A DNA stretch of 64,000 nucleotides, taken from assembly GCA_002507565.1 (NCBI GenBank), contig MOXJ01000012.1, positions 1,035-65,034 of the forward strand, given 5' to 3'. Position numbers and translations under genes: made by a program. The first letter of the stretch is position 1. Every line of letters starts with the position of its first letter. The notes beneath the pieces were generated by a model. The model saw only the letters and a program-made list of their open reading frames with translations, was not told where the DNA came from and ran no database searches. This DNA comes from Candidatus Reconcilbacillus cellulovorans. Its GTDB lineage: Bacteria > Bacillota > Bacilli > Paenibacillales > Reconciliibacillaceae. Shown here one piece after another: positions 6,623 through 46,548 of this stretch.

Positions 6623-7354
6623 TCAAGCCGTCCATCCGCCGTCGAGCACGATGATCTGGCCGGTGATGTATCCAGATTCAGGAAGAGCCAAAAAATGCAC
6701 CCACGAGGCGATTTCTTCCGGACGCGCAAATCGACCCGCCGGAATTTCGCCGAGGAGTTCGCGGCGCTCGTCCGCGTCGAGTACGGCGTTCATGCGAGTG
6801 TCGACCGCGCCGGGCGCAATGGCGTTGACAGTAATGCCCGACGGCGCAAGTTCTTTGGCCAGCGCTTTCGTCAACGCATTTACCCCGCCTTTTGCGGCGG
6901 AATACGCGGCTTCGCAGGAGGCGCCGCAGATCCCCCATACGGAACTGATGTTGATGATGCGGCCGTACTTGTTGGCCAGCATCCCGTCCAAAAACGCCCT
7001 CGTGCACAGAAACACCGATTTCAGGTTGGCGTCGATGACGTCGTCCCAAGAAGACTCGTCCATATCGCCCAACAGGCCGAAGTACGCCGCTCCCGCGTTG
7101 TTGACGAGAACGTCGGGACGAAAACCGGCGCAGGTTAGCTGTTCTTTCATCCGTGCAACCTCATCGGAACGGCGCAAGTCGGCGCATACCGTCTCGACGC
7201 GCACGCCGTAGCGACGGCAACGTCGCTCGACTTCTTGGGCCGCCTGTTCCGAGCGGAAATAATGAATCGCCACATCGAATCCACGACTGGCGAGCAGTTC
7301 GGCAACCGCCGAACCGATTCCACCGCTGGCCCCGGTGATCAGTGCGTTACGCAC
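6623..7354 (-). CDS. ymfI: Short-chain dehydrogenase/reductase (YmfI / FabG-like 3-oxoacyl-ACP reductase)
   Basis: The ORF track extends this gene to 7432. GTG at 7354 sits behind GGTGGAG and gives the canonical SDR N-terminus, RNALITGASGGIGSA. The active-site motif SAAKGG and NAIAPGAV are present. The longer version would overlap ymfH. Confidence 0.88.
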   Translation of the reverse strand: MRNALITGASGGIGSAVAELLASRGFDVAIHYFRSEQAAQEVERRCRRYGVRVETVCADLRRSDEVARMKEQLTCAGFRPDVLVNNAGAAYFGLLGDMDESSWDDVIDANLKSVFLCTRAFLDGMLANKYGRIINISSVWGICGASCEAAYSAAKGGVNALTKALAKELAPSGITVNAIAPGAVDTRMNAVLDADERRELLGEIPAGRFARPEEIASWVHFLALPESGYITGQIIVLDGGWTA

Positions 7355-29869: not shown

Positions 29870-29874
29870 CGTCG

Positions 29875-31683: not shown

Positions 31684-31686
31684 GGT

Positions 31687-32202
31687 TCATTCCCCCCGTC
31701 CTACCGGTATGCGCGAACGGATGTTCAGCACGGGCGACGTCGCGCCGACCGGCCGATACTCCAGATCGATCACCACATGATGATGACCTTCGGCGATCAG
31801 TTTCCCCGAGGAAATTTCAAAAGCAGGTGCAAGCGCGAACACTTTCGGCGGACCGGACGGCATAATCGGATCGACGCGGATTTGCCCGCCGTCGAATCGC
31901 ATTTCATACCAGGCGATATACTGTTTCGGATCCGCAGACGGCTTGACGAACCGAATCGACCGCTGCGTCGTATCGGCCTGTTCGACGTAAATCGCGTCGC
32001 CCAGCTCGGTCACGATGCGGCTGAAAAGCAGGTCGCCCTGGTTGCGCATGGTCGTTTCGATCGTAACGCGCTTGTAGATGGACATCGCCATTAAGACGAA
32101 CGAGTAGATGATCGTCGTCACCATCGTCATGATCATGAGCGCGACCAACGTTTCAAGCAACGTCAGGCCCCGTTCGTCTTTCCGCCGACCGATTCGCCGC
32201 AT
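31687..32202 (-). CDS. Minor pilin with prepilin-type N-terminal cleavage/methylation motif (GspJ/PilW-like)
   Basis: 171 aa. The N-terminus is MRRIGRRKDERG|LTLLETLVALMIMTMV, with Gly at -1, Glu at +5 and a hydrophobic helix. Confidence 0.82.
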   Translation of the reverse strand: MRRIGRRKDERGLTLLETLVALMIMTMVTTIIYSFVLMAMSIYKRVTIETTMRNQGDLLFSRIVTELGDAIYVEQADTTQRSIRFVKPSADPKQYIAWYEMRFDGGQIRVDPIMPSGPPKVFALAPAFEISSGKLIAEGHHHVVIDLEYRPVGATSPVLNIRSRIPVGRGE

Positions 32203-32209
32203 GTTCCGC

Positions 32210-32677
32210 TCATCCTTTCGCGATCATCGCGTCGACATAGGTGGACAGGCGCGGCACGGCGGCGGGAGAAACGGCGCCGGCCTCCGCCCAGAAGACGCGG
32301 ACGGTCATCGCGATCAGCCGTTCGTCCGCGTCCGGCCGCAACACGACCTGATAGCGGTAAGTCGTGCCGTTGATCACCGTATCGTTCAAAAGTCCGGCCA
32401 ACGGGCCGGCAGAAGCGGCGGTGAACGTGGCGGTGCCGGCCGACGCGACATAGGCGCGAAGCGGGTCGTACTCAGCCGGTTTTTTGAACGCCTCGCGGAG
32501 TTCCGCCGCCTTGTACCTCGCCAGATGAACCGCGATCGTCCGACGGTTCTGTTCTGCCGATCGTTCCATTGCCGACAAGATGTAAGCGGCCATCGTCACC
32601 GTCACCACGCTCATGATGATAACGGCGATCAGGATTTCGACCAGGGTCAAGCCGGATTCGCCGCGAAGCCGGCGCAT
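32210..32677 (-). CDS. Minor pilin with prepilin-type N-terminal cleavage/methylation motif (GspI/PilV-like)
   Basis: 155 aa behind a strong GAAAGGAGGGAGA SD. The N-terminus is MRRLRGESG|LTLVEILIAVIIMSVV. Confidence 0.82.
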   Translation of the reverse strand: MRRLRGESGLTLVEILIAVIIMSVVTVTMAAYILSAMERSAEQNRRTIAVHLARYKAAELREAFKKPAEYDPLRAYVASAGTATFTAASAGPLAGLLNDTVINGTTYRYQVVLRPDADERLIAMTVRVFWAEAGAVSPAAVPRLSTYVDAMIAKG

Positions 32678-32717
32678 CGTTTCTCCCTCCTTTCGCGACG
32701 GAAACCGTCATAACGCT

Positions 32718-35096
32718 TCAGTACCGCTTCTGATTGTAATCAAGGTCAACGCGAAGCGGCGTCGGCAGCGTGATCGTGACTCCGTCGTCGTCGACGAGGC
32801 GCAGAAAGACGTAATAAGTTCCCCTCGTCTGTCCGGGAGCTGTCGTCACGCGGAATTTCAGCGCGTTCAGCTTATGCCAGTCGCCCGGTTGCAGCCGTGC
32901 CGCATCGGACTGTGTCGAAACGGCGTAATACATTTCCACGACCCGGAATCCCGGCTGATTGAAACGCGGCGTCACCGGATGCGATGTTCGGACTTCGACG
33001 AGCACCGGCTTATCGCTCGGCGAACCGGGCGAGCTCGGATCGAGCGCGACCAGCGAGCCTTGCGGGCCGGGATTGACGACGAACAACCCGGGACCGGCCT
33101 GCGCACTGCCGCCGGTCGACGTCGCCTCGACGCGGATCCGGTGCCATCCCCACCGAGCGGAAGCATCCGGATATACGTCGCTCAGGCGGAACGACGCCGT
33201 ATAGACGTTGCCGTTTTGTTGAATACCTGAAGCGTCGACGACGAGCGACGGCGACGAAGCGTCGTCCAACCAGACGCGTATGCGCGTGACGGGGCTGCTG
33301 TCTTCCGTGGCGACGACCGTGATCCGGCCGTCGTCCGCCGGCTTCGGAATATCGAACTGGAATGCGACCTGCGGCGGCGTGCTGTCAAGCAACACCGTCT
33401 GCCGGTAGGCGTTGCCGCCGATCGGGAACCCCGCGATCGCATTCGTGACGGCGCGTGCCTCAACCGTGACGGAACCGTCGGGCAACGCGACGGGTCGGCC
33501 GGGCATCCAGTTCGTCCAAACGCCACCGTTTATCCGGTACTGATAACCGGCGATATAATTCGCGCGGAAATCTTCGTTCAAATATTGGGTTTCAGGCGGA
33601 AGACGGCCCGCCGAACCGGAAATCGCGGTCACCTTGCCGGGGCCGAGATGCCAACCGGACGAGAGAATCTGTCCGCCCGCACCGTCGGTGAGCTGAAGCG
33701 ACGGCGCCGTCGGCGTCAACGTCCAACGCTTCACGTCGCCGTTATGGTAGCGCACCGCGACGATCGTGTCGTCGGCGATCCCGTCGCCGGGATCGGCGTC
33801 TTCAAACCAGATGTCCCGCACTCCGCCGGTACCGCTGGCGGGAATACGCCACTGCGCGGCTCCGTCGCCGGCGCGGTAACGCGTCACCGTTCCGTCCGCT
33901 TCGCCGACGTACGTATTACCATAGCGGTCGACGGCACGGACATAGACTTGCACCGATGCACCCAGCTTGATGTTGACCTCGCGCACCTGGCCGCAATCGT
34001 CGAGGTAGCGCACGACAGCGTCGGTCAGAGTATAGTTGCCGGAACCTGGCGGCGGCGTGAGCGAGACGGTCACCGTTTTTTCGGAACCCGGCCCGAACGG
34101 ATAGACGAAACTGCCCAGCACGTCGATGACGACGACGCCGTTTTCCAACCGCACCGTCGACGGATTGTCTCCGGACAGAGAAAAACCGTTCGGCAACGGT
34201 TGGCGAACGACCGTCGACGTAATCGTACCGTTCGACTGGATTTCTTCCGTAATCGCTTCAAATACGCTTTCCAATTCGGAGGTATCGCCGGCCTGATACA
34301 TCTTGCCGCCCGTTTTTTGCGCGATCTGTTGCAGCAAGTTCAGGTCGACATCTTGCGAACCCGGTTGGGCAAGCGCGATCGTATAGACGACAATGTTGCG
34401 GTTTTTCATCGAATCGGCGTCGGCGAGTGCTTCTTGACGGGCTTTTGATTCGTCGTACTTAGCTTTCCCGTCCTTATTGTCCGTATAGTAGTTCGCATAG
34501 CCGTCCGTCAGTAAAATCGCCACGCGCATCCGGTTCTGCGGCGAATTTCTAAGCATTTCTTCTGCCAATGTCAAACCATGGTCGATATTCGTATATCCAT
34601 TTGCATAAAAATTGTTAATTTTGTTCCTTATATCACCGTAATTTGTAGTTAACTGACTTTCAACCGAGGCAGTCGTAGAAAACTTGATCAATCCTACCCG
34701 GTCGCCGGCGTTGGCCGCTTGAATTTTGTCCAGGAGCCGTTTGGAGGCCTTCTTCAGCGCTAGAAGACGGGTATCCTCGCCGGTTTGAGGCCTTTGGTTA
34801 TAAACCCCATAATTCATACTGCCCGACACGTCCAGCACCAACGCGATATCCGCCGGCTGGCGCGACGGCCGCGGCGGCGGCGGGCTGCCCGACGGCGTCA
34901 GCGTATACGTGATACGCACCGTTTCATCGGAAGCGACCGACGATTTTTCGACGACGGCCGTTCCGGTCAATTGAAAGTGCGGCGTGCACGACGGATCGGC
35001 CGCTGCCGCACCGGACGGGACGACGCCGATAAGCGTCATCGCCAGTACCAGCACAAACAAGGCGGGAAACGCCCGATAACGCCGTTTTGCCTTCAT
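32718..35096 (-). CDS. Secreted 792-aa von Willebrand factor A (vWA) domain protein, candidate pilus-associated adhesin
   Basis: It has a Sec signal peptide (MKAKRRYRAFPALFVLVLAMTLIGVVPSGAAAA) and a MIDAS motif (DIALVLDVSGSM at aa 83-94) within a vWA fold of about 190 aa. A long beta-rich C-terminal region follows. I saw no LPxTG and no prepilin motif. Confidence 0.8.
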   Translation of the reverse strand: MKAKRRYRAFPALFVLVLAMTLIGVVPSGAAAADPSCTPHFQLTGTAVVEKSSVASDETVRITYTLTPSGSPPPPRPSRQPADIALVLDVSGSMNYGVYNQRPQTGEDTRLLALKKASKRLLDKIQAANAGDRVGLIKFSTTASVESQLTTNYGDIRNKINNFYANGYTNIDHGLTLAEEMLRNSPQNRMRVAILLTDGYANYYTDNKDGKAKYDESKARQEALADADSMKNRNIVVYTIALAQPGSQDVDLNLLQQIAQKTGGKMYQAGDTSELESVFEAITEEIQSNGTITSTVVRQPLPNGFSLSGDNPSTVRLENGVVVIDVLGSFVYPFGPGSEKTVTVSLTPPPGSGNYTLTDAVVRYLDDCGQVREVNIKLGASVQVYVRAVDRYGNTYVGEADGTVTRYRAGDGAAQWRIPASGTGGVRDIWFEDADPGDGIADDTIVAVRYHNGDVKRWTLTPTAPSLQLTDGAGGQILSSGWHLGPGKVTAISGSAGRLPPETQYLNEDFRANYIAGYQYRINGGVWTNWMPGRPVALPDGSVTVEARAVTNAIAGFPIGGNAYRQTVLLDSTPPQVAFQFDIPKPADDGRITVVATEDSSPVTRIRVWLDDASSPSLVVDASGIQQNGNVYTASFRLSDVYPDASARWGWHRIRVEATSTGGSAQAGPGLFVVNPGPQGSLVALDPSSPGSPSDKPVLVEVRTSHPVTPRFNQPGFRVVEMYYAVSTQSDAARLQPGDWHKLNALKFRVTTAPGQTRGTYYVFLRLVDDDGVTITLPTPLRVDLDYNQKRY

Positions 35097-35131
35097 GAAC
35101 GTTCACCCCTTCTTTCCGCTAAGTTTTCGGT

Positions 35132-36358
35132 TTAAAGTTTCAGCATTCTGGAGATCACGGCAAACGCTTCGGCCCGCGTTAATAGACCGTCCGGGCGGAA
35201 CGTGCCGTCAGGATAACCGCCGATAATCCCTGCAGCGGTCACCCGTGCAAGGCTGTCGCGCAAGCCTTGCGGCAAACCGCCGGTATCGCGGAATGCCAAC
35301 GCGGCCGGTTGCGGCGAAACATTCGCGGATCGCATCGCGGCGTCCGTCCATTGCGCCATTTCGATGCGGCGCATGTATGCGTTCGGTTGGAACAGCGGCG
35401 AAGACGGCGTCGTCGACAAGATCCCTTTCCTCTGAAGCGCTTCGACGATGGAAGAAGCCCAATGATTTTCCAAATCGGTGTACGCTTTCGCCTTAGCTCC
35501 CGCCGCTGCCGAAAGACCGAGCGACCGGGCGAGCAGCGCGGCGAATTCGGCGCGCGTCAGGCGTCCGTCGGGACGGACGGTGCCGTCTTCATATCCTTCG
35601 ATAATCCCGCGTTCCATCAGATCGACGACGACCTCTTTCGCCCAATGGTCGACGATATCCGCGGGAAGACGGCTTAACGCCTTGCGCTTGGTAAGGGCGG
35701 CGGAAAACGCGGGAACTTTCTGCGGTATGTCGTCCTGCCGCCGGATTTCTTGCGGATTCGTATCGGTATCGACGTCGGAATTCCCGAAAACGTCGCCGTA
35801 CAAGCTGAACACCGTGCCTTCACGGACTTTCGGGACGTTTCGGCGCGCCGCCTCGGCATCGGTCGGAATGTCGGCCCATGGCATGACTCCCAGATAGGAG
35901 CGCGTTTTGAACGCTTCTTGGGATTCAGCCGCGAAAAACGAACGGACGGAACTGTCGATATCGGTCACGGCGTAAACGACTTTGCCGCTTGCATCGACCC
36001 ACAGTTCATCCCAGCCTGCTGCCAGATCGTTACCGCTGCGCGAGACGACGCCGGTCCAGACGCGCACATAGGCGGGCCGGTCTTTCGCAGGCGCTTCCAG
36101 CACGACGGCGTACGGATCGGCCGACACGACCGTTCCAGGCGCCCATCCGTCGGTATTGAACGTCGCAGTACGATAAATTTGCAGTCGCTCCTCCGACGGT
36201 TTTCCGCGAGCCTCGGCAAACGGTGAAAAGCTTGCTCCGAACGCTTCTTTCGGCATCGGCCACAGCGCCCACCAAGCCAATAAGGATAAAACGACCGCCC
36301 ACGCCACAACGGCGCAAACCGTCATCCGGTCCCTGCACAACACCGCGGATTTCGTCAT
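35132..36358 (-). CDS. Membrane-anchored protein with three C-terminal S-layer homology (SLH) repeats
   Basis: 408 aa. It has an N-terminal transmembrane segment (CAVVAWAVVLSLLAWWALW) and an unknown domain of about 190 aa. Three SLH-like repeats follow (DIVDHWAKEVVVDLMERGIIEGYEDGTVRPDGRLTRAEFA; YTDLENHWASSIVEALQRKGIL; GLRDSLARVTAAGIIGGYPDGTFRPDGLLTRAEA). The start codon lies 1 nt after the pilT stop. Confidence 0.78.
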   Translation of the reverse strand: MTKSAVLCRDRMTVCAVVAWAVVLSLLAWWALWPMPKEAFGASFSPFAEARGKPSEERLQIYRTATFNTDGWAPGTVVSADPYAVVLEAPAKDRPAYVRVWTGVVSRSGNDLAAGWDELWVDASGKVVYAVTDIDSSVRSFFAAESQEAFKTRSYLGVMPWADIPTDAEAARRNVPKVREGTVFSLYGDVFGNSDVDTDTNPQEIRRQDDIPQKVPAFSAALTKRKALSRLPADIVDHWAKEVVVDLMERGIIEGYEDGTVRPDGRLTRAEFAALLARSLGLSAAAGAKAKAYTDLENHWASSIVEALQRKGILSTTPSSPLFQPNAYMRRIEMAQWTDAAMRSANVSPQPAALAFRDTGGLPQGLRDSLARVTAAGIIGGYPDGTFRPDGLLTRAEAFAVISRMLKL

Positions 36359-36359
36359 G

Positions 36360-37433
36360 TCAATAGCTCTCTCCTTCCCCGACGCTCATTTCGTATTCGC
36401 GAATCACGTCGCGATGAATGAGGCCCGCCTCCGCCAGTTGCCGCAAACTCGCCGACAGCGTCTGCATCCCGTATTGCCGGCCGGTCTGGATGACCGAACG
36501 AATTTGATAAATTTTTTCTTGTCGGATGAGATTGGCGACCGCCGGAGTGTTAACGAGAATTTCCAGAGCTAACACGCGCCCTGTTCCGTCCAATCGCGGA
36601 ACGAGCCTCTGCGACAGAACGCCGAGTAAGACCGAAGCGAGCTGAATCCGGATTTGACGCTGCTGTTCCGTCGGAAACACATCGATGATGCGGTCGACGG
36701 TCTGCGGGGCGTCCGGCGTATGGAGCGTCGCCATGACCAGATGGCCGGTTTCCGCCGCCGTAATGGCGGTCCGGATCGTTTCCAAGTCGCGCATTTCGCC
36801 GACCAGAATGACGTCGGGGTCCTGGCGCAATGCCGCACGCAAGCCATTGGCAAACGACAACGTGTCGACGCCGATTTCCCGCTGGACGATCAGACTCATT
36901 TTATTCTGATGAATATATTCGATCGGGTCTTCCAGCGTGATGATGTGCCTTTTCTGCGTTTCGTTGATATAGTCGACGATGGCGGCGAGCGTCGTCGATT
37001 TGCCGCTGCCCGTCGGCCCGGTGACAAGAAGGAGCCCTTGTTGTTTTTGGGCGAATTCTTTGACGAGCGGGGGCAGCTGCAAGGCATCGATGCTCGGGAT
37101 ACGGCGCGCCAACACGCGAAACGCCATCGCCACCGTCCGGCGCTGGCGGAACACGTTGACGCGGAAATGCCCTACCCCCGGAAGGGAAAACGAAAAATCA
37201 TACTCGCCCTTCCGTAAAAATTGCTGAAACTGCTCTTCCGACATCACTTCCTTGGCCATCCGCAACGTGTCTTCCGCCGTCAGCGGCCTGGTACCGATCC
37301 TTTCCAGCCTGCCGTGCAGACGCAGAAGGGGCTCGATGCCGGCGCTGATGTGCAGGTCGGAAGCTCCGGATTCAAAGGCGGCGGCCAACAGTTCCTTGAC
37401 GGACAATCCCTTGACGGAAACCGGTTGCGCCAT
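36360..37433 (-). CDS. pilT: Type IV pilus retraction ATPase PilT
   Basis: 357 aa with ASDLHI, Walker A (TGPTGSGKSTTLAA), ITLEDPIEY, ILVGEMRDLETI and ATLHT motifs, typical of the PilT family. Confidence 0.92.
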   Translation of the reverse strand: MAQPVSVKGLSVKELLAAAFESGASDLHISAGIEPLLRLHGRLERIGTRPLTAEDTLRMAKEVMSEEQFQQFLRKGEYDFSFSLPGVGHFRVNVFRQRRTVAMAFRVLARRIPSIDALQLPPLVKEFAQKQQGLLLVTGPTGSGKSTTLAAIVDYINETQKRHIITLEDPIEYIHQNKMSLIVQREIGVDTLSFANGLRAALRQDPDVILVGEMRDLETIRTAITAAETGHLVMATLHTPDAPQTVDRIIDVFPTEQQRQIRIQLASVLLGVLSQRLVPRLDGTGRVLALEILVNTPAVANLIRQEKIYQIRSVIQTGRQYGMQTLSASLRQLAEAGLIHRDVIREYEMSVGEGESY

Positions 37434-37448
37434 GCATGCATCGCCCTT

Positions 37449-38108
37449 TCACGGCTCGGGTCCGACGCGAATCGGCATCGGATCGGGGAAAAACGTTTTC
37501 AGGTCAGGCGCATAATACGCGCTCAGCGTCAATTGACAGGTATACAATCGTTTGTCGGCATTCAACTTGACCGGCGGAGCGGCGTCCGCCTGCAGCTCGA
37601 CCCGGTCGATCCGGACGAGCCGCCTCATGGTCTGGATTTCCTCCAGCAACCGCCTGATTTGCGTCCATTCGCCTTTAACCGAGGTTTTCAGCTGAAGCTG
37701 TGCAACCGTTGGAGCCGCCGACGGCCGACCGTTCTCCTGTCCGCCCGTCTGGGAAGCAGGCGTATCGGAACCGGTCGAGACGGGCTGGAAATTGTAGTCC
37801 GAAAACTGAAGACGCGTCACCGACTCCAGCATGCGCAGATCCTGAACGAGCCGGTCGCGGTAAGGCTCTTCCGGAACGGCCTCACGCACCTTTTCCAGTT
37901 CAACGCGGACTCTGCCCGCCGACTGCTGTGCAACATTCGGACGGGCGGTCAGCAGTTGAAATTCTTTGCGTTTTTGTTCCAACTGCGCATTCAGATCGGA
38001 CCGCCGTTCTTGCAGCGGCATGATCCACCATACGTAAACGCCTGCCGCCAGAAGCGCGACGATGACAAACAACCCCCAACGCAAAAGCGGCGTATTCGGC
38101 ACGCTCAC
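37449..38108 (-). CDS. pilO: Type IV pilus assembly protein PilO-like
   Basis: 219 aa with a GTG start in a GTGA overlap with pilN. It has one N-terminal transmembrane segment followed by a coiled coil (LQERRSDLNAQLEQKRKEFQLL). It sits after pilM-pilN. Confidence 0.72.
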   Translation of the reverse strand: MSVPNTPLLRWGLFVIVALLAAGVYVWWIMPLQERRSDLNAQLEQKRKEFQLLTARPNVAQQSAGRVRVELEKVREAVPEEPYRDRLVQDLRMLESVTRLQFSDYNFQPVSTGSDTPASQTGGQENGRPSAAPTVAQLQLKTSVKGEWTQIRRLLEEIQTMRRLVRIDRVELQADAAPPVKLNADKRLYTCQLTLSAYYAPDLKTFFPDPMPIRVGPEP

Positions 38109-38791
38109 GTCCGGCTCGCCCCCCCTTGCGGCGACGCCGTCGGCGTGTTCGCTCCCGTCTGCGGCGCCGGAGTCGGGTTCGGGCTTATACTCGGACTCGG
38201 CGACGGCTGGATAATGCGGATGCGGATCGTCGCTTGTACGACGGGCAGCCAGTCGCCTGCCGGAGAAGCCGGCGCCAACGATGGAGTCGGAAGCGGCACG
38301 CGGGAGACGCCCGTGATCTCTACACCGGCAAACGTCGGTTCCTGCCGCAGCGCTTCCACTCCGCGGACAAGCGCGTCCGCCGTCGCGAAGCCGACCGTCA
38401 CCGTCATTTCTTTGCCGTCAAAGTAAACAAGGCCGTTTAAATTCGAGTAAGCGGGCAGTTTGGCGATTAGCCGATCGAGAACGTCGGTCGCGGACGGACC
38501 ACTGCCGCGAAGGACGGACGGTAATGCAAGCCATTCGGCGACCGTGGTTTCCGATATGGTGTTGTTCCGCGCCTTCAACAACTCGTCGATGCGCGCCTGC
38601 ATCGCATTGAGCTCCGCCTGCGTCGTCCGGACGTCCCGATCGGCGTCGTACCAAAGCCAGCCGGTCACGCCGAACGCGACGACGGCGAACAGCGCCAGAT
38701 ACACGACCCACGGGATCGTCGGCGACGAGGGGGTTCGCGTCAAATCCTGCAACAGATTGATTTCGATGGAACGAAATTTGACGGGTTCCAT
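38105..38791 (-). CDS. pilN: Type IV pilus assembly protein PilN-like
   Basis: 228 aa. The conserved cytoplasmic INLL motif (RSIEINLLQD) is followed by a transmembrane segment and a coiled coil. The C-terminal tail is Pro/Ser-rich. Confidence 0.75.
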   Translation of the reverse strand: MEPVKFRSIEINLLQDLTRTPSSPTIPWVVYLALFAVVAFGVTGWLWYDADRDVRTTQAELNAMQARIDELLKARNNTISETTVAEWLALPSVLRGSGPSATDVLDRLIAKLPAYSNLNGLVYFDGKEMTVTVGFATADALVRGVEALRQEPTFAGVEITGVSRVPLPTPSLAPASPAGDWLPVVQATIRIRIIQPSPSPSISPNPTPAPQTGANTPTASPQGGASRT

Positions 38792-38809
38792 GTCGTGCCC
38801 CTTTCGGCG

Positions 38810-39781
38810 TTACGCCCCTTTCAGCGCCAGACCGATCGCCACCGCATACGGGTCGTACTCCGCGGTGTTTTCGAAAAAAAGATACAACACCCGCTCCATC
38901 GGCAGCGGACGGATCAGCTCGCGGAGCGACTCGTCGAGAAACTCCGGAAGCCGCTTGACTTCCGCATTGTCGAACGCCATGTAAATCCGCCGAATTTCCC
39001 CGTGGTCGGAGGACATCGAATAGCGATAGTAGTTCATCAGCCGGCTCAATTCGATGGACAACGACCGGCCGAACAAAGCCAACGGGTCGCCGCCCTGCTC
39101 CAGCCAGATGTTCCGCGAAGAGCGGAACGAACGGAACAAAACGGGGACGCTGTCGGCGAAAATGCTTACGTCGACGCGCTCGGCTTCGACGTACAGCAAC
39201 ATGAACCTGTCCGGGGCTTCCTCCCCGGTGATCGCCGCGTGCCGAGCGAGCAACCTGAGCAACGCAAGCGGCACGAGATCGACGGCGACCGGCTCGAGTC
39301 CCGCAGAACGGACCGTTCGGACGAGTTCTTCTACGACATCGCGGGGCGTCGCGAAAATGAGCACTTCGTCCTTCCCAGCTTCCGCCGCGGGACCGAGCCT
39401 TACGAAGTCGAATACGGGATTTTGGAACGGCAGCGGCGTTCCCCCGTGCAGGTCGACGTCGATCAAATGCCGCAGTTCGCGGTCTTTAACCGACGGAAAC
39501 GCCGCCTTGCGAAGCGCGACGCTCGACAGCGGAACGGCGACGTTGACGCCGGTTCCGCGCAAATCCGCATCTTTGACCATCGTGCGCAACGCCTCGGCCG
39601 CCGCTTGCGCATCAGCTATGCGCCCTTCGCGCATGCACCCGTCGGGGAGCGGGGCGGAAAATCGCCGGGTGACGGCGACTCTGGAATCGGACGGACGGAT
39701 TTCGACAAGTTTCGCCTCCTGATCCGACAGCGACAGGCCGTAGGCGTACCGGCTTTTTTTCCAGCCCCAGTTGATGCGCAT
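38810..39781 (-). CDS. pilM: Type IV pilus assembly ATPase-fold protein PilM
   Basis: The ORF track extends this gene to 39991, through pilA. ATG at 39781 follows a GAGGAGG SD. The protein is an actin-like fold protein of 323 aa and is immediately followed by pilN. Confidence 0.8.
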   Translation of the reverse strand: MRINWGWKKSRYAYGLSLSDQEAKLVEIRPSDSRVAVTRRFSAPLPDGCMREGRIADAQAAAEALRTMVKDADLRGTGVNVAVPLSSVALRKAAFPSVKDRELRHLIDVDLHGGTPLPFQNPVFDFVRLGPAAEAGKDEVLIFATPRDVVEELVRTVRSAGLEPVAVDLVPLALLRLLARHAAITGEEAPDRFMLLYVEAERVDVSIFADSVPVLFRSFRSSRNIWLEQGGDPLALFGRSLSIELSRLMNYYRYSMSSDHGEIRRIYMAFDNAEVKRLPEFLDESLRELIRPLPMERVLYLFFENTAEYDPYAVAIGLALKGA

Positions 39782-39858
39782 GGCGAACCTCCTCGACGTG
39801 CGTATGGGATGACAGCGGCCGCCCCTGCCGACTGACCAACAGGCGGACCGGGCGAGCG

Positions 39859-39879
39859 GCCGAAAAAGCCGTCTTCGGC
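39859..39879 (-). terminator. Weak candidate terminator/attenuator just after pilA
   Basis: The minus strand reads GCCG-AAGA-CGGC-TTTTT, or alternatively GCCGAA-(9 nt)-TTCGGC, starting 3 nt after the pilA stop. The stem is short, so this could at best be a partial terminator. Confidence 0.3.
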
Positions 39880-39881
39880 GA

Positions 39882-40376
39882 TTACGGCGTGTTGCTCGGT
39901 GACGGCGATGTGCCGCCGCCAATCGACACTGTTTTAATTTCTTCTTCGGTTTTGTTATCAAAGTATTTGGTATTTCCACTAGCATCAACAAGCGTAATAC
40001 GATAGGTCAGACTACCATTGCTTGAATTTTGGGTAACAGTTACTTTAGTTGCTGTTGGATGGTAAGTGCTGTTGTTGGTTCCTTGCGGGTCTTTAGGCTC
40101 TTTGTCCAAATATCCCGCACTTACAATCTGTTCCAGAGTAATTGTTTGCACGTTTCCACCTGTTGTATCGGGATTAAACCCTTCCGTCGTCACTTTAAAC
40201 CGTGCACCGTCAATAATCATTTGGGCATTCGCGCGGTGCGCCTCTTTCTTCGTCTTATTGATAATCCCACCGATCGACGGAATGGCGATCGCCGCAATGA
40301 TCGCCAAGATGACGATAACCGCAAGCAATTCGATCAACGTCAAACCGCGCTGATCGCGGTACAGCCGTTTGAGCAT
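39882..40376 (-). CDS. pilA: Major type IV pilin (prepilin-type N-terminal cleavage/methylation domain)
   Basis: ATG at 40376 follows an AAAGGAGGA SD and gives MLKRLYRDQRG|LTLIELLAVIVILAIIAAIAIPS. The protein is 164 aa with no Cys and has a GGGTSPSPSNTP tail. In-frame upstream ATGs at 40454 (strong GGGAGGTGA SD) and at 40493 (ATGA overlap with pilC) are alternative starts. Confidence 0.88.
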   Translation of the reverse strand: MLKRLYRDQRGLTLIELLAVIVILAIIAAIAIPSIGGIINKTKKEAHRANAQMIIDGARFKVTTEGFNPDTTGGNVQTITLEQIVSAGYLDKEPKDPQGTNNSTYHPTATKVTVTQNSSNGSLTYRITLVDASGNTKYFDNKTEEEIKTVSIGGGTSPSPSNTP

Positions 40377-40489
40377 CGAAAATCGTCCTCCTTTTCCGTT
40401 GGATTCGTGATACTGTCGATTTCGCAACAGCCGTAACCGGCTTCGCTTGTTCATCTCGTTCACCTCCCTTCCGGTGTGTGTTTCGGGTT

Positions 40490-41701
40490 TCATCTCAAGA
40501 AATTCTCATACATCTTGAACATCGGCGACATCATCGCGGCGACGATGACGCCGACGACGGAAGCGACGACGAGCAGCAACAGCGGTTCCACCAATGCTTT
40601 CAGGCGGTCGACGCTTTGTTCCACGTCGTGTTCGTAAAAATCGGCGATTTTGGCAAGCATTTTGTCGATTTGGCCGGTTTCCTCGCCGATGACGAGCATC
40701 TGCACCACCATCGCAGGAAAAAAACCGCTTTCCGCAAGCGGCTGCGACAGCCACTTGCCCTCGCGCAACCGCTCACCGGCCAGCGCAAGAGCGCGGGTAA
40801 TCGCGGCGTCGCCGACAGCCCGGGCCGTCACCTCGAGCGCTTGCAAAATCGGCACGGCGCCGGACAGAAGCGACGACAACGTGCGGGCCATGCGCGCGAT
40901 CGCCGCTTTTTTCATGACCGGCCCGAAGATCGGCAGGCGAAAACGGACGATCCCCCACCATACCTTCCCTTTTTCCGACTTGCGGATCAACCGGAAAACG
41001 ATCCAGAGCCCGGCCGCAAGCGGTAGCACGAGCCACCATACTTTTCCCGCCAACCGGCTTGCGCCGATGACGGTTTTCGTGATCCACGGCAATTCGGCGC
41101 CTTGTTCGGCGAACAAGCTTTCGAACGTCGGCACGATGCGTACGAGCAGAAAAATGACGACGCAGATCGCAAGAACGAGAACGACGATCGGATACGTCAT
41201 CGCCGACTTGACTTTCTGGACGATCTTGTGCTCGCGCTCGTAATGGTCGGCCATTCGGTCGAGCACGTCGTCGAGCGTGCCGCCGGCCTCGCCGGAAACG
41301 ATCATATTGACGAACATGTCGGGAAAAATCGATTTATGGTCGGACATCGCCTCCGACAGCTGCCGGCCCGTCCGCACCTGATCGGCGACGTCGGCGATCG
41401 CCTGACGCAATTTGCGGTTTTTCGTCTGTTCGACAAGAACCGCAAGCGACCGGTCGATCGGAACGCCGGCGCGAATCAGGGTGGCGAACTGTCGGCTGAA
41501 CATGACGAATTCCGACAGCTTGACGGGACGGCCGATCTGAATGTCGCGGTTCCACACCGACGGGCGCGCTTCTTCGACTTTGCGCACCGACAGGTTTTGA
41601 CTGCGCAGTTCCGCGACTGCGGCGTACTTGTTGATCGCTTGAAGCGTACCTTTCACTTTTTTACCGCTTTCGGTCACCGCTTCGTAGGAAAACAACGGCA
41701 T
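40490..41701 (-). CDS. pilC: Type IV pilus platform protein PilC (GspF family)
   Basis: The ORF runs 40490-41731. ATG at 41701 follows a GGAGGAGGGG SD and gives MPLFSYEAVTESGKKVKGTLQA. Two T2SSF repeats with transmembrane segments are present. Confidence 0.9.
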   Translation of the reverse strand: MPLFSYEAVTESGKKVKGTLQAINKYAAVAELRSQNLSVRKVEEARPSVWNRDIQIGRPVKLSEFVMFSRQFATLIRAGVPIDRSLAVLVEQTKNRKLRQAIADVADQVRTGRQLSEAMSDHKSIFPDMFVNMIVSGEAGGTLDDVLDRMADHYEREHKIVQKVKSAMTYPIVVLVLAICVVIFLLVRIVPTFESLFAEQGAELPWITKTVIGASRLAGKVWWLVLPLAAGLWIVFRLIRKSEKGKVWWGIVRFRLPIFGPVMKKAAIARMARTLSSLLSGAVPILQALEVTARAVGDAAITRALALAGERLREGKWLSQPLAESGFFPAMVVQMLVIGEETGQIDKMLAKIADFYEHDVEQSVDRLKALVEPLLLLVVASVVGVIVAAMMSPMFKMYENFLR

Positions 41702-41747
41702 CGCGGCCCCTCCTCCGCCCAACGGAAGCAAAACCGTCAGGTTCGCC

Positions 41748-43466
41748 TTAATCCTCGGCGACGGCGCGCAACACCTCTTCGACGGTCGTCAACCCGAAGC
41801 GCGCCTTGGAAAGACCGTCGAACAGCATCGTCCGGTATCCCTGTTCAGACAAATAACGACGCATTTCGTCGACGGGGCGGTTCTGGGCGATCATCCGCCG
41901 CAGCGGCTCGTCCACGGTCAGCACCTCGTGAATGGCGATCCGCCCCCGATAGCCAGATTTGTTGCAGCTAGAACAGCCTTTGCCGCGCCAGACGGTCGCC
42001 GGCTGATGAACGAACGACAGGCCGACGCCGCGACCGCCGGCGGCGTTTTTCGCCTCGGCCGACACGAGGCCGTGCGCTTCGAACAACCGGATTTCTTCCG
42101 GCTTTGCGGCGACTTGCTGGCCGCACTCCCTGCATACGCGCCGGACGAGACGCTGCGCCACGACGCAGACAAGCGACGACGCGATCAGATACGGATCGAC
42201 GCCCATGTCGACCAGCCGCGTGATCGTGGCGACCGCGCTGTTGGTGTGAATCGTGCTCAGGACAAGATGGCCGGTCAGCGACGCGCGTACGGCGATTTCC
42301 GCCGTTTCGACGTCGCGGATCTCGCCGACCATGACGATGTCCGGGTCCTGGCGCAAAATCGACCGCAGCCCGGAAGCGAACGTCAATCCGATTTGCGCGT
42401 TCACCTGCACTTGCGTGATGCCGGGCAGGCGGTATTCGACCGGATCTTCGATCGTGATAATTTTCAGCTCGTCGCTGTTGATCTCGTTCAGGACCGAGTA
42501 GAGCGTCGACGTTTTCCCGCTGCCCGTCGGCCCGGAAATGAGAATGATGCCGTTCGGTTTCCGGATAACTTTCGAAAAAACGGAGAAGTTGTCTTCACTC
42601 AGTCCGAGTTCGGACAATTTTTTGATGCCGGCCGACTGATCGAGCAGACGGAGAACGATGCTTTCGCCGTAAACGGTCGGCAGCGTGGATAAACGGATGT
42701 CGATCCGCCGGCCGTCGACCTGCATCTGGATCCTGCCGTCCTGCGGCAGGCGCCGCTCGGCGATGTTGAGTTTGGCTAAAATTTTGAGGCGCGTCGTCAA
42801 GGCGTCCTGCAAATGTTTCGGCAACGCGCGCTCCGTGTAGAGCACGCCGTCGATGCGGTATTTGACGACGACCTGGCGTTCCTGCGGATCGATGTGAATG
42901 TCGCTGGCCTGGCGCTGGACGGCCGCTCGGATGATCTGGTCGACGAGCTTGACGATCGGCGAATCCGCCGCCAAGAGCGACTCGTCCTCCGCGTCGGCGT
43001 CGGCCGCACCGCCGCTTTCTTCCAGGTCGAGCCATTGCTCCAGCTTCTTCATCCCGTAATAGCGGATGATCGCCTGCTCGATGTCGCTGCGAACGGCGAT
43101 GACCGGCTGGATGCTCATGCCCGTCGCCATTCGAATTTCTTCGATCGCTTCGTAGTTCAGCGGATCCTCCATTGCTAGCTTCAGCTTGCCGTGCTTGCAG
43201 TCTACCGGGATGACGCAATGCTTTTTGGCGAGTTCTTCGGAAACCCGCTTGACCGCCTGCAGATCGGGCGGCGTTTCCTGCAAGTTCACGACAGGAAATC
43301 CGAGCTGAAACTCCAAAACTTCGACAAGCTGCCGCTCCGTGATCCAACCGCGTTCGACCAAAATGTGGCCGAGTTTTTTCTTCGTATCGGCCTGCACCCG
43401 AATCGCTTCTTCCAGTTGGCTTTCGGTGATCAGGCCGTTCATGACCAGCAACTCCCCGAGACGCAT
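41748..43466 (-). CDS. pilB: Type IV pilus extension ATPase PilB (GspE family) with an N-terminal MshEN-type domain
   Basis: The ORF runs 41748-43511, with ATG at 43466 behind AAAGGGGG. The N-terminus is RLGELLVMNGLITESQLEEAIRVQ, followed by a second copy of the motif. It has Walker A (SGPTGSGKTSTLYS), VGEIRD and a tetra-Cys cluster (CRECG...CSSCNKSGYRGR). Confidence 0.93.
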   Translation of the reverse strand: MRLGELLVMNGLITESQLEEAIRVQADTKKKLGHILVERGWITERQLVEVLEFQLGFPVVNLQETPPDLQAVKRVSEELAKKHCVIPVDCKHGKLKLAMEDPLNYEAIEEIRMATGMSIQPVIAVRSDIEQAIIRYYGMKKLEQWLDLEESGGAADADAEDESLLAADSPIVKLVDQIIRAAVQRQASDIHIDPQERQVVVKYRIDGVLYTERALPKHLQDALTTRLKILAKLNIAERRLPQDGRIQMQVDGRRIDIRLSTLPTVYGESIVLRLLDQSAGIKKLSELGLSEDNFSVFSKVIRKPNGIILISGPTGSGKTSTLYSVLNEINSDELKIITIEDPVEYRLPGITQVQVNAQIGLTFASGLRSILRQDPDIVMVGEIRDVETAEIAVRASLTGHLVLSTIHTNSAVATITRLVDMGVDPYLIASSLVCVVAQRLVRRVCRECGQQVAAKPEEIRLFEAHGLVSAEAKNAAGGRGVGLSFVHQPATVWRGKGCSSCNKSGYRGRIAIHEVLTVDEPLRRMIAQNRPVDEMRRYLSEQGYRTMLFDGLSKARFGLTTVEEVLRAVAED

Positions 43467-43560
43467 CGTCGCCGGCCCCCTTTCGCGCGCGTTCGTTTCA
43501 GGCCGCTCCAATTACACCGCTTGATCCCATTTCGCCGTAAACGGCGGGGGGATGGTGCCG

Positions 43561-44502
43561 TCATGCGCCTGACCTTTGCCGCTCCTCGCCGGACGGTGCC
43601 CTCCTGATGATTTCCGGGCGGGGTGCGTAATAGTCTTTCGAAATGATCACCTGTGCTCCGTTCTGCCGGCGCGCCAGAACCGTCACGTACAGCCCCGGCC
43701 TGCCCGCCTCGCGCACCGTCTGGCCTTCCCGTAGGGCAAAGTCGACAAGCATCAACGTCGAAGGAAGAACTTCTTCCGTCTTCACTTCGATCTCCGGAGC
43801 AGCCCATCCCGGAGACGGCAAGCCCGAGAACAAAACGACGGTCTTGTCGCCTTCCCGACGGACATCAAGCGTGACTGCAAAATCGAACGGATTATAAAAC
43901 GTCAAATTTCGTCGACCCGGCTCGAACATCGCGTCAAACCCCGGCGTAACATAAGTCGGCATTTGCGGATGCAGGTGCCGTTCGCCGGTTATCAGCCCTG
44001 CCCGGACCGCAGCCTCATAGAGAAGCGAGGCGACCTGCGACATTGCGGTTTCGGATGCCGAACCGACTGACTGCAGTTTGTCGCGGTAGACTTCCTGTAG
44101 CGAAAAGGCTTCGCCCGGCTTCAACGACATTCCTTTCAACGCATCCAACCATGCCGTCGCCTGCTGTTCGACAACAGCAAAACTCCTCGCCTCGGCGAGC
44201 GTTCTCGCCGAAGCCTGTCCGGAAGACAGCGCGGGTTCCGTCTGCCGCTGCGAACGGTCGGGCGAGGCCTGAGGCTTCGGCGCGACCGACGCCGATGCCG
44301 GTGAAGGACTTTGCGCCGTCTTCTTCACCGGCGAGACGCCCGACAACCATCCCGGCCGATCGAGCGCACCGAGCGACCAGGCGGAATATAACAAGAAAGC
44401 AGTTACCATACCCGCCAAAGCAACAATGGTAAGAACGATCCCCCCGCGCGGACGCCGGGAGACCGTCGAACGCGCATTCGTTCGCCTTCGCCTTGGTTCC
44501 AC
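43561..44502 (-). CDS. Membrane-anchored VanW-like domain protein, first gene of the pilus operon
   Basis: 313 aa with a GTG start behind GGGGGA. It has an N-terminal transmembrane segment and a Ser/Pro-rich linker. The segment SQVASLLYEAAVRAGLITGERHLHPQMPTYVTPGFDAMFEPGRRNLTFYNPFDFAVTL runs parallel to the VanW/YoaR core (CQVS.TL.NAAL.AGLEIVER..HS..V.Y...G.DATV....DLKF.N). Confidence 0.65.
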   Translation of the reverse strand: MEPRRRRTNARSTVSRRPRGGIVLTIVALAGMVTAFLLYSAWSLGALDRPGWLSGVSPVKKTAQSPSPASASVAPKPQASPDRSQRQTEPALSSGQASARTLAEARSFAVVEQQATAWLDALKGMSLKPGEAFSLQEVYRDKLQSVGSASETAMSQVASLLYEAAVRAGLITGERHLHPQMPTYVTPGFDAMFEPGRRNLTFYNPFDFAVTLDVRREGDKTVVLFSGLPSPGWAAPEIEVKTEEVLPSTLMLVDFALREGQTVREAGRPGLYVTVLARRQNGAQVIISKDYYAPRPEIIRRAPSGEERQRSGA

Positions 44503-44538: not shown

Positions 44539-44583
44539 AGGCTAACATAAAAACGGGCAATTGAAAATAATGCATATGTATTA
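44539..44583 (-). promoter_or_regulatory. Promoter of the pilus operon with an abutting 16-bp palindromic operator (copy 1)
   Basis: The minus strand reads TAATACATATGCATTA (44583-44568), then TTTTCA (-35), then 17 nt, then TAGCCT (-10, 44544-44539). The architecture and spacing are the same as in copy 2 at 45510-45554. Confidence 0.55.
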
Positions 44584-44592
44584 AGCTGTCTG

Positions 44593-45432
44593 TCATATGC
44601 CTTTCAGAACCCGCAGAATGAATGATGCCTTTGAGTTGACATTCAATTTGGCATGGATTTTAGAAACGTAGACGCGGACCGTATTTTCACTGATGCCGAG
44701 CATCTGGCCGATGCGTCTGGTGTCGTAGTCCAACAGCCAGTAAAACGCGATCTCCCGTTCTCTGGGACTGAATTCGTACTGGTTCAGAAGCTCCATCAAC
44801 TCGGCATCCGAAAACCATGACTTGTGATTGGAATTTTTTCGTTGAAAATTCGTTTCAATGACGGACGCGATCGACGCAAGGGCGGCGTAGGCCAGCAGCG
44901 CCGAGATCCGCCGCGATGCGAACAGGGCGACCATCGCCACCGGGCGTAGGTCTTCGTTCCACACCGGCACGCAGAGCGTCATCCAATCTTTCATCACGTC
45001 GAGATAATGGTCGTTTCCCAATATGAACGCTGAACGCCGCAATTCGATCGCCGCCGAGACCGCATTCGTACCCGCGCTCGAAATCGACAGCGAGGAACCG
45101 ACGCCGATTTTTAACATCCGCTCCGATTGTTCCAGCGACTCGGAATCGCCGCTGATGTGGAGAACGACGCCGTAAGCATCCGTGATAGTCAAAAGATGGG
45201 GGAAAAAGAAACGCTGAGGGGATGAGGAGATCCATTCTTCGGCAATATCCAGCACCGAGCGGTTTTTCGCCATCAAACGGTCCAGCATTTGCCCATGAAG
45301 CCGGAAGCGGACGGAGGTGAGACTCGGAGCGATGCCCTGCTGGCGTGATTTGTCGTGCAACCACTCGATCTCTTTCGGAGAGAGGCCGACGACTTTCAAA
45401 AACTCCCTGTCTTTTGTTTTGCCCGAAAACAC
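44593..45432 (-). CDS. LuxR/GerE-family transcriptional regulator with an N-terminal sensory (GAF-like?) domain
   Basis: 279 aa with a GTG start behind an AAGGGAGG SD. The C-terminal HTH is SPREREIAFYWLLDYDTRRIGQMLGISENTVRVYVSKIHAKLNV. The N-terminal 200 aa include a GTNAVSAAIE-type segment, and I cannot assign that domain firmly. Confidence 0.82.
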   Translation of the reverse strand: MFSGKTKDREFLKVVGLSPKEIEWLHDKSRQQGIAPSLTSVRFRLHGQMLDRLMAKNRSVLDIAEEWISSSPQRFFFPHLLTITDAYGVVLHISGDSESLEQSERMLKIGVGSSLSISSAGTNAVSAAIELRRSAFILGNDHYLDVMKDWMTLCVPVWNEDLRPVAMVALFASRRISALLAYAALASIASVIETNFQRKNSNHKSWFSDAELMELLNQYEFSPREREIAFYWLLDYDTRRIGQMLGISENTVRVYVSKIHAKLNVNSKASFILRVLKGI

Positions 45433-45509
45433 ATAACAGCCTCCCTTTCCGACACATCCACCCGCTTCTGGGAATCGAAGCGTTTATCCTCCTCCTCGAC
45501 CTGAGATTC

Positions 45510-45554
45510 ATTCTAAAAGATTTTTTCAACACTTTAAATAATGCATATGGATTA
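45510..45554 (-). promoter_or_regulatory. Promoter of the LuxR-type gene with an abutting 16-bp palindromic operator (copy 2)
   Basis: The minus strand reads TAATCCATATGCATTA (45554-45539), then TTTAAA (-35), then 17 nt, then TAGAAT (-10, 45515-45510). The palindrome overlaps the ribF stop codon. Confidence 0.55.
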
Positions 45555-46535
45555 ATCCAAAGCGACTATCGATTTCGCCGCCTTCACATCACGCGCGATT
45601 TGCCGAATGAGTTCCTCCGCGGAAGGAAACCGGCGTTCCTCCCGAAGATAGTCCTCGAACTCGACGATAAGCCGGGAACCATACAGCGTCCCGGCAAAGT
45701 CGAGAATATGGACTTCAAGAACCGATTCCGCTCCTTCGGTTCTCCCGTCGACAAACGTCGGCCGGGAGCCGATATTCATGACGGCGATGCGGCGGAGTCC
45801 GTCTGGCGTCGTCGCGCGAACGGCGTACACGCCGCCCGCCGGGACGACGTAAGGCTCGTCCGGCACCAGGTTGGCGGTCGGAAATCCGATGCGTCTTCCC
45901 CTCCCGTCGCCGCGAACGACCGTTCCCGCCAGCAAATACGGCCGTCCCAGCATCGACGCCGCCGCCCGCACATTGCCCGTCCGCAGGCATTCGCGTATGA
46001 GCGAGCTGCTGACTTTGCGGCCGTTTTCATAAATGGGACGCACGACTTCTACGGCAAACCGCCCGCTCGCCAACGAACAGAGCGTATCCGGCGTCGCCTC
46101 AGCCCGAAAACCGAACGTAAAGTCGAAACCGACCGTCACCGTATCCGGAGCAAGCGGGATCAAAATTCGCTCGACGAAGGCCGCCGCAGACAATCGCGCA
46201 AACACCTCGTCGAACCGGACGACCAAAACGAGATCGACGCCTAACTCGCGAAAACGGCGCAGCTTTTCGCCGAGCGGCGTCAGGTTGCACGCGTACTCCC
46301 GCTGGCCGAAAACAAACCGCGGATGGGGATGAAACGTCATGACCGCGGAAAAAAGATTCAGCGTCCGGGCCGTTCGGACCGCACGCGCGATCACTTCCCT
46401 GTGCCCGAGGTGAACCCCGTCGAAATCGCCGATCGCCAACGAAAGCTTCCGGTTTGTCGAGTCCTCCGGGCTTGAACCGTCGTCGCTGCGCAATGCGGAA
46501 GTTACGGAATCATAACTGTAATGTCGGACGATCAA
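45552..46535 (-). CDS. ribF: Bifunctional riboflavin kinase / FMN adenylyltransferase
   Basis: The ORF runs 45552-46544 (GTG). TTG at 46535 is better spaced from the GAAGGAG SD. The motifs are LAIGDFDGVHLGHREVI, GFDFTFG and GFPTANL. Confidence 0.93.
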   Translation of the reverse strand: MIVRHYSYDSVTSALRSDDGSSPEDSTNRKLSLAIGDFDGVHLGHREVIARAVRTARTLNLFSAVMTFHPHPRFVFGQREYACNLTPLGEKLRRFRELGVDLVLVVRFDEVFARLSAAAFVERILIPLAPDTVTVGFDFTFGFRAEATPDTLCSLASGRFAVEVVRPIYENGRKVSSSLIRECLRTGNVRAAASMLGRPYLLAGTVVRGDGRGRRIGFPTANLVPDEPYVVPAGGVYAVRATTPDGLRRIAVMNIGSRPTFVDGRTEGAESVLEVHILDFAGTLYGSRLIVEFEDYLREERRFPSAEELIRQIARDVKAAKSIVALD

Positions 46536-46548
46536 TCCGGTCACTCCT

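Follow-up and report, generated by a model that had tools for sequence, protein, structure and literature searches.

The 64,000-nucleotide stretch of Candidatus Reconcilbacillus cellulovorans DNA analysed here (the window) carries on its minus strand a gene for a LuxR-type regulator followed by a type IV pilus (pil) operon, and a 16-bp palindrome stands once before each. These two palindromes are probably the operators by which the adjacent regulator would activate its own gene and the pil operon, a reading that draws on sequence comparison among relatives. Copy 1, TAATACATATGCATTA at 44583-44568 on the minus strand (TAATACA-TA-TGCATTA), begins 9 nt past the stop codon of the regulator gene and is the proposed operator of the pil operon promoter. 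Copy 2, TAATCCATATGCATTA at 45554-45539 on the same strand (TAATCCA-TA-TGCATTA), is the proposed operator of the regulator's own promoter, and its bases 1-3 (TAA) form the stop codon of the preceding gene, ribF. Both are built as two inverted heptamers 2 bp apart (7-2-7). A preliminary description of this DNA had read them, on the minus strand, as two 16-bp palindromes in identical promoter architecture with 20-nt cores that differ at one base, had seen the motif nowhere else in the window, and had named a generic repeat as one thing that would undo its proposal. The minus-strand reading proved exactly as claimed, and the repeat finder returned the cores as a 20-nt direct repeat (family D3) of 95% identity, with copies 971 bp apart and one base different.

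The search with TAATNCATATGNATTA, allowing up to 2 mismatches, gave two matches in the window, at 44568-44583 and 45539-45554, where 0.02 would be expected by chance, and none of 100 shuffles held two or more. The 20-mer, with up to 3 mismatches, returned the same two places and nothing in the shuffles. Since the G+C content of the window is about 60%, the twofold presence of an A+T-rich 20-mer is far beyond chance and is not an effect of composition; nor was the motif generic across the 64-kb window and about 210 kb of orthologous loci. A matrix built from 16 sites of other genomes, with the window left out, ranked the two window sites first, copy 1 being the top match (26.3 bits on one strand, 24.9 on the other) and copy 2 the second (23.9 and 21.8 bits). 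The next-best match (15.3 bits, 32926-32941) was rejected as a further site, as it lies inside a VWA gene and has no promoter elements, and the matrix scan of the window found no site before the pilin gene.

Each palindrome runs directly into a predicted promoter on the minus strand. That of the regulator gene (45510..45538) is of the sigma-A type, with the -35 hexamer TTTAAA at 45538-45533, a 17-nt spacer at 45532-45516 and the -10 hexamer TAGAAT at 45515-45510. The predicted promoter of the VanW-like gene and the pil operon (44539..44567) is weak and has the -35 hexamer TTTTCA at 44567-44562, a 17-nt spacer at 44561-44545 and the -10 hexamer TAGCCT at 44544-44539. A consensus promoter scan recovered the copy-2 promoter with 9 of 12 consensus matches, and the copy-1 promoter fell under its threshold because of the weak -10. 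Against the consensus, each -35 hexamer scores 4 of 6 matches and the pil -10 scores 3 of 6; such poor elements fit a dependence on an activator. With the -10 taken to lie at -12 to -7, the dyad would span about -51 to -36 on the predicted promoters, centred at about -43.5 and abutting the -35, and transcription would be predicted to begin near 45503 and 44532 on the minus strand. Class II activators sit near such a position, and this placement would favour class II-type activation with positive autoregulation.

The regulator gene (44593..45432, minus strand) encodes 279 residues with a GAF-like N-terminal domain (about 1-175), a linker helix (178-203) and a GerE/LuxR helix-turn-helix (HTH) domain (about 209-275). 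Pfam GerE (PF00196) matched residues 221-272 at E 3e-12, with 46.4 bits against a gathering cutoff of 23.5. An AlphaFold2 model made with 23 homologues (mean predicted local distance difference test score 86.7) showed an alpha/beta domain to about residue 175, the helix at 178-203 and a four-helix HTH with helices at 223-275, as is seen in the GerE/LuxR/FixJ class. The best PDB sequence matches of the HTH were to a response-regulator DNA-binding domain, StyR, GerE and NarL. The Pfam search gave no match in the N-terminal 200 residues, for which the precomputed Pfam label is PF26965 (MimR_N), flagged weak, and the NCBIfam DhaR model aligned with residues 46-204 at E 1.4e-11 and 43 bits against an equivalog cutoff of 551. 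When the model was compared with the PDB by Foldseek, the top match was E. coli DhaR(N), 4lrx_C, at E 4.7e-12 with a template modelling (TM) score of 0.60 and a root-mean-square deviation of 3.2 A over 202 columns; CviR, RhlR, VqmA, CodY and IclR-type sensor-plus-HTH proteins followed at far lower TM. A family profile run against the PDB sequences reached the same chain, 4lrx_C, at E 7.9e-5. Structure and partial sequence matches, then, place the modelled domain among the DhaR/AcoR/MimR sensor domains, with their GAF-like alpha/beta fold, and the idea put forward earlier that the N-terminal 200 or so residues serve as the signal input is in keeping with a predicted sensor domain closest to DhaR(N). 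Joined to a LuxR HTH, a sensor of the AcoR/DhaR type would make the protein a one-component regulator.

The regulator belongs neither to the response regulators nor to the acyl-homoserine-lactone receptors. No PF03472 autoinducer-binding domain was found by Pfam at E up to 0.01, and CviR and RhlR aligned at TM 0.2-0.3 only; Pfam likewise found no PF00072 receiver domain, and the NCBIfam response-regulator models covered the HTH portion only, far under their cutoffs. Neither a PF00158 AAA+ domain nor a PF02954 Fis HTH was found by Pfam, which sets the protein apart from the sigma-54 enhancer-binding proteins. An exhaustive search with the N-domain gathered 327 clusters at 50% identity, mostly of 270-285 residues; all nine homologues sampled from that size range carry GerE, and sigma-54 activators of about 600 residues are also among the homologues.

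For comparison, 22 genome loci (labelled L0xx) were used together with two Logan contigs, L023 and L024, which have 76% and 97% protein identity, respectively. The close homologues of the regulator (42-49% identity, about 281 residues) come from Paenibacillus, Gorillibacterium and Marinicrinis, and no regulator encoded by a species-representative genome exceeded 49% identity to that of the window. The regulator gene, the VanW-like gene, pilB, pilC, the pilin gene and pilM follow in this order in about 18 of the 22 genome loci (Paenibacillaceae), with the VanW-like gene between the regulator gene and pilB in L001-L019. The upstream neighbour of the regulator gene varies: ribF is found there in none of the 22 and is confined to the two close relatives, L023 and L024. 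The association of the regulator is therefore with the pil operon and not with the housekeeping operon next to it in the window. All family members keep the same recognition helix, SENTVRV. In Cohnella yongneupensis, the gene immediately before the VanW-like/pilB operon (L019, 5914-6186) encodes a 90-residue, HTH-only homologue that has no sensor domain, has the recognition helix SQNTVKVH and is accompanied by no palindrome of this type. A further homologue, P0032, stands in a non-pil neighbourhood with the recognition helix SEHTVKAY, and here, too, there is no palindrome. The loss of the palindrome together with a changed recognition helix in these two was counted as support for specificity.

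A search of the loci for the symmetric consensus TAATGCANNTGCATTA at up to 3 mismatches put nearly all of its matches into two zones, namely 60-210 bp upstream of the regulator start and the interval from the regulator stop to the VanW-like gene. Among ten representative lineages, 20 of 25 matches lay in these promoter zones, which make up 5% of the sequence (binomial p 4e-22), and composition-matched shuffles of the zones gave 0.34 matches on average. The family consensus from 21 sites is TAATGCA-NN-TGCATTA, that is, inverted heptamers 2 bp apart, and at the level of sequence it would conform to the 7-2-7 geometry that is characteristic of NarL/GerE-type HTH dimers. The complete layout of palindrome, -35 (TTKNCA), 17-18 nt and -10 was found before the regulator gene in 11 lineages and before the pil operon in 10; seen from the window, the regulator promoter layout is repeated in 10 other lineages and the proximal site of the pil promoter has an equivalent in nine. 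The aligned -35-like hexamers read TTGTCA, TTTCAA, TTTTCA or TTTGCG and the -10 hexamers TATAGT or TATATT. Information content is highest at T1, A2, A3, T4, T10, G11, A13 and A16 of the dyad (T10, G11 and A13 being invariant), over the first three -35 bases and in the -10; the spacer carries almost none. Such recurrence extends to lineages in which the regulator is only 42-49% identical to that of the window. Closer to the window, L024 has an identical copy 2 and a conserved copy 1, and in L023 both sites are the perfect palindrome TAATGCATATGCATTA, with 8 of 17 positions of the regulator-promoter spacer matching the window; in the pil promoter of both contigs the -10 is TAGNCT and the spacer is kept at 17 nt. 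L018 has a single site, before the regulator gene, and its VanW-like gene starts 28 nt past the regulator stop, so one palindrome-promoter appears to drive both genes. The adjacency and the sites in both promoter zones are thus conserved as would be expected of a locally acting, autoregulated operon regulator, and the earlier proposal that the neighbouring LuxR/GerE protein governs its own promoter and that of the pil operon gains support from the synteny and from the predicted sites that recur in register.

The mechanism that is proposed on these grounds is conventional in itself: a dimeric HTH factor with a dyad beside the -35. A dimer of the regulator, with the sensor domain and the long linker helix as its probable interface, would bind both 7-2-7 operators and, lying directly against a poor -35, would act as a class II-type activator that recruits RNA polymerase. 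One promoter would drive the regulator gene, giving positive autoregulation, with basal expression possibly supplied by read-through from ribF; the other would drive an operon of the VanW-like gene, pilB, pilC, the pilin gene, pilMNO and pilT. Whether the regulator is active would depend on a signal that the N-domain receives, be it a small ligand or, as in DhaR, a partner protein. We infer from sequence the binding by this protein, the start positions, activation in place of repression and the nature of the signal. A bolder version, to which we give little credence, would make the family a dedicated master switch of piliation in Paenibacillaceae, with the sensor, like that of DhaR with DhaK and DhaL, under the control of a partner protein (a pilus component or the VanW-like protein) in place of a small ligand; combined with positive autoregulation, this would yield a Gram-positive piliation switch that is feedback-coupled and possibly bistable.

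Several observations weigh against activation by this route. The -35 and -10 elements are consensus guesses, and the presumed pil -10, TAGCCT, is a poor one. A Paenibacillus clade (L005 and L007-L015) has a degenerate site before the regulator gene, with 4 mismatches and 14.8-15.6 bits, and the -10 of the regulator promoter is indistinct in L004 and L006. Specificity in the source organism was gauged within the 64-kb window only. L007-L014 have a further good copy right past the regulator stop and before a terminator, which the model does not explain. In L007, L008, L009, L013 and L014 this third copy, for example TCATACATATGCATTA, lies at about 6845-6860 and reaches at most 20.8 bits when scored on the opposite strand, with a strong intrinsic terminator about 60 nt beyond it; the copy may give rise to a short transcript under regulation or have its effect on the opposite strand.

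Finally, a site just upstream of the -35 could also serve a repressor, for example one that loops with upstream auxiliary sites. The same regulator at the same sites would then occlude the UP-element and the -35, possibly with looping, and a signal would release it, giving negative autoregulation and a de-repressed pil operon; some LuxR-family proteins, those of the EsaR type, are repressors, which was counted for this alternative. The spacing of sites in relatives is in its favour. In many of them an upstream site ends 12 nt before the proximal dyad (28-29 bp from start to start), L004, L006 and L017 have a third site 42 bp upstream, and in L011 and L023 dyad pairs overlap with a 14-bp offset; two or three sites 14, 28-29 or 42 bp apart, as in several relatives, are typical of repressor loops as well. 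The window shows no more than one near-perfect dyad per promoter. Nor should an activator be needed at the regulator promoter of L004 and L006, given its good -35 (TTGTCA), and there a further TAATGTGTTATTTA element overlaps the -10 region. What speaks against repression is that the -35 hexamers and the pil -10 of the window are weak, as with a dependence on an activator, that in all lineages the palindrome ends exactly at the edge of the -35 and overlaps neither the -35 nor the -10, and that a centre at about -43.5 is the position of a class II activator. Repression by this protein is on balance unlikely, if worth keeping in mind.

Two alternatives would take the palindromes away from the regulator altogether. 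A different transcription factor, encoded elsewhere, might bind them, with the LuxR-type neighbour serving other targets; global regulators often bind in promoter regions, and it is there that this A+T-rich motif lies. We consider this quite improbable, as the site accompanies the regulator gene whatever its upstream neighbour, is gone where the recognition helix of the homologue differs and, as a 7-2-7 dyad, fits an HTH dimer of the GerE/NarL type. Nor is the palindrome known to resemble the operator consensus of a global regulator of Bacillota, among them CodY, Spo0A, SinR, DegU, Fur/PerR, CcpA and Rex. An origin unrelated to operators, as direct repeats left by an insertion, a recombination site, or RNA hairpins or terminators after ribF and the regulator gene, is suggested by two direct 20-nt copies that bracket a single gene, each directly past a stop codon and followed by a T-run. 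As RNA, however, the palindromes form no hairpin in the minimum-energy fold (z-scores -1.6 and -0.8, no better than shuffles), such a hairpin would have an A+T-rich stem and a loop of 2 nt, and neither a terminator-like match on the minus strand nor an Rfam match was obtained, so that the terminator or RNA-hairpin reading was rejected. No integrase or transposase adjoins the copies, and the orthologous loci, often with a separate true terminator upstream, keep degenerate motifs in the -35/-10 register, for which reason an insertion scar or recombination site was rejected as well; taken together, such origins are very hard to credit.

Among known systems, the LuxR/TraR activators share with this regulator a C-terminal GerE/LuxR HTH behind an N-terminal alpha/beta sensor domain, a dyad set against a weak -35 (here a predicted one), and a regulator gene that adjoins its target operon with what looks like autoregulation. 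Their lux and tra boxes are centred near -42.5, compared with about -43.5 on the promoters predicted here. The LuxR receptors CviR, RhlR, SdiA and QscR gave weak whole-chain Foldseek matches. The likeness ends with the N-domain, which is DhaR/AcoR-like and not PF03472, and with the absence of a luxI-type gene nearby; the lux box is 18-20 bp long in contrast to the 16-bp 7-2-7 operator, and the host here is a Gram-positive member of the Paenibacillaceae. The preliminary description had spoken of a lux-box-type site, and this holds for the layout against the -35 but only as an analogy of layout, the protein not being an acyl-homoserine-lactone receptor. The proposed operator has the geometry of the sites of NarL/GerE HTH dimers, with two 7-bp half-sites 2 bp apart and T and A at the outer ends; the NarL heptamer is TACYYMT. 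Unlike NarL, the regulator has no receiver domain and hence no phosphorylation input, and its half-site, TAATGCA, differs.

As modelled, the N-terminal 200 or so residues superpose on E. coli DhaR(N), 4lrx_C, which is the link to DhaR, AcoR and MimR; in place of the PAS domain, AAA+ sigma-54 domain and Fis HTH of those proteins there is a LuxR HTH, and with that output the regulator would act on sigma-A promoters from about -43.5 and not from distant enhancers. VqmA, matched both by Foldseek and by PDB sequence, is likewise a one-component sensor with a LuxR HTH and a palindrome upstream of a neighbouring target, but it has a PAS domain with 3,5-dimethylpyrazin-2-ol (DPO) as ligand and other targets, and belongs to Vibrio and its phages. 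Dedicated control of pilus expression is also known from PilS-PilR with sigma-54 in Pseudomonas and from the cyclic di-GMP riboswitch of pilA1 in Clostridioides difficile; here, neither a two-component system, a sigma-54 promoter nor a riboswitch was found (Rfam returned nothing), and control is proposed to be exerted by a one-component LuxR-type factor at the head of the operon.

The control of type IV pilus transcription in Gram-positive bacteria is poorly understood, a known case being that same riboswitch before pilA1. Full-text literature searches returned no description of the regulator, of its motif or of LuxR-type control of Gram-positive type IV pili. In Paenibacillus thiaminolyticus, type IV pili were reported as a virulence factor, and the pilus locus was linked to an AraC-type regulator, unlike the present one (PMC9765702). 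The analysis yields a conserved one-component regulator family, a probable operator consensus and two predicted target promoters with exact coordinates, which makes the regulation of piliation in Paenibacillaceae directly testable. Hundreds of related proteins that join an AcoR/DhaR-type sensor to a LuxR HTH are uncharacterised, and their annotation would also gain from the assignment of a first operator and target.

Other sequences resembling the operator were met along the way. A possible weak auxiliary site within the final ribF codons, TAGTCGCTTTGGATTA (45568-45553, minus strand), would be offset from copy 2 by 14 bp and share 2 bp with it; its equivalent in L023, TAGTCTCTATGCATTA, scores 17.4 bits, and L011 has the same overlapped pair at a 14-bp offset as the candidate auxiliary site and copy 2. 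The block GATAGTCG.TT is common to the window and L017 at the same position, although L017 has no ribF upstream. The last ribF codons (tcg ata gtc gct ttg gat; 45552-45571) overlap this operator-like block, and its retention in L017 behind a different upstream gene suggests that the regulator-pil module, together with its operator, was joined to the 3' end of ribF in this lineage. A partial site, AAAGGCATATGACAGA at 44589-44604, agrees at 9 of 14 specified positions; it lies in the last regulator codons, 21 bp upstream of copy 1, and is complementary to part of that copy (repeat finder, pair I14). Outside the promoter zones, a match in L003 at 4670 was set aside because it is inside a coding region, and a 13.5-bit match recurs in L008 and L013. 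The exact 19-mer TTAATGCATATGCATTATT gave 25 matches in a metagenome scan, all of them in contigs of low G+C (22-49%) with no homologue of the regulator or the pil genes, and these were discarded as uninformative chance matches.

Some features of the transcribed leaders were also seen. In the predicted 5' untranslated region of the regulator gene, at 45463-45482, a 6-bp G+C-rich hairpin (cgcttc-N8-gaagcg on the minus strand) is kept in L024 and not in L023. The leader from the pil -10 to the ATG of the VanW-like gene is strongly conserved in L001, L002, L005 and L007-L015 (e.g., 7425-7478 in L007) as GAGGCATCCCACCGAAACGGGAGGGAAAATGTCGAGCTTTGAGGGACGG...ATG with a small hairpin; it is absent from the window, and the leaders of L001 and L007, when searched against Rfam, gave no match. 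In Paenibacillus pectinilyticus (L010, about 7000-7750), the spacer between the regulator and pil genes holds a long array of tandem repeats of about 60 nt (…ggtcggaaaaaccgattaaatcgctgagga…).

The order of genes on the minus strand is infB, rbfA, a DHH phosphoesterase gene, truB, ribF, copy 2, the regulator gene, copy 1 and the VanW-domain gene, followed by pilB, pilC, the prepilin gene, pilM, pilN, pilO and pilT, and the whole pilus cluster is thus placed directly downstream of the infB-rbfA-truB-ribF genes. The upstream neighbour ribF (45552..46544, minus strand), which encodes a FAD synthetase/riboflavin kinase, is of interest as context only, and a scan of the minus strand from ribF through the regulator gene to the VanW gene found no terminator-like element. 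The VanW-domain protein (43561..44502, minus strand; PF04294, E 1.2e-11), encoded by the first gene of the pil operon, has an N-terminal membrane anchor. The type IV pilus genes, assigned from Pfam domains and synteny, occupy 36360..43511 of the same strand, with open reading frames (ORFs) for pilB at 41748-43511, pilC at 40490-41731, the prepilin (N_methyl) at 39882-40493, pilM at 38810-39991, pilN at 38105-38791, pilO at 37449-38108 and pilT at 36360-37433. On the 97%-identical contig, the Pfam domains of the pil genes are MshEN/T2SSE, T2SSF, N_methyl and PilM_2. The prepilin ORF has a 39-residue N-terminal extension, and the true start is probably an ATG near 40376, which is preceded by AAAGGAGG and opens the prepilin leader MLKRLYRDQRG/LTLIELL. 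Past pilT, at 28793-36358 of the window, are genes for an SLH-domain protein, a 792-residue VWA-domain protein, two minor pilins of the N-methyl type and a 602-residue protein without a Pfam match, and after these one for a CheY-like receiver protein whose long tail is of low complexity.

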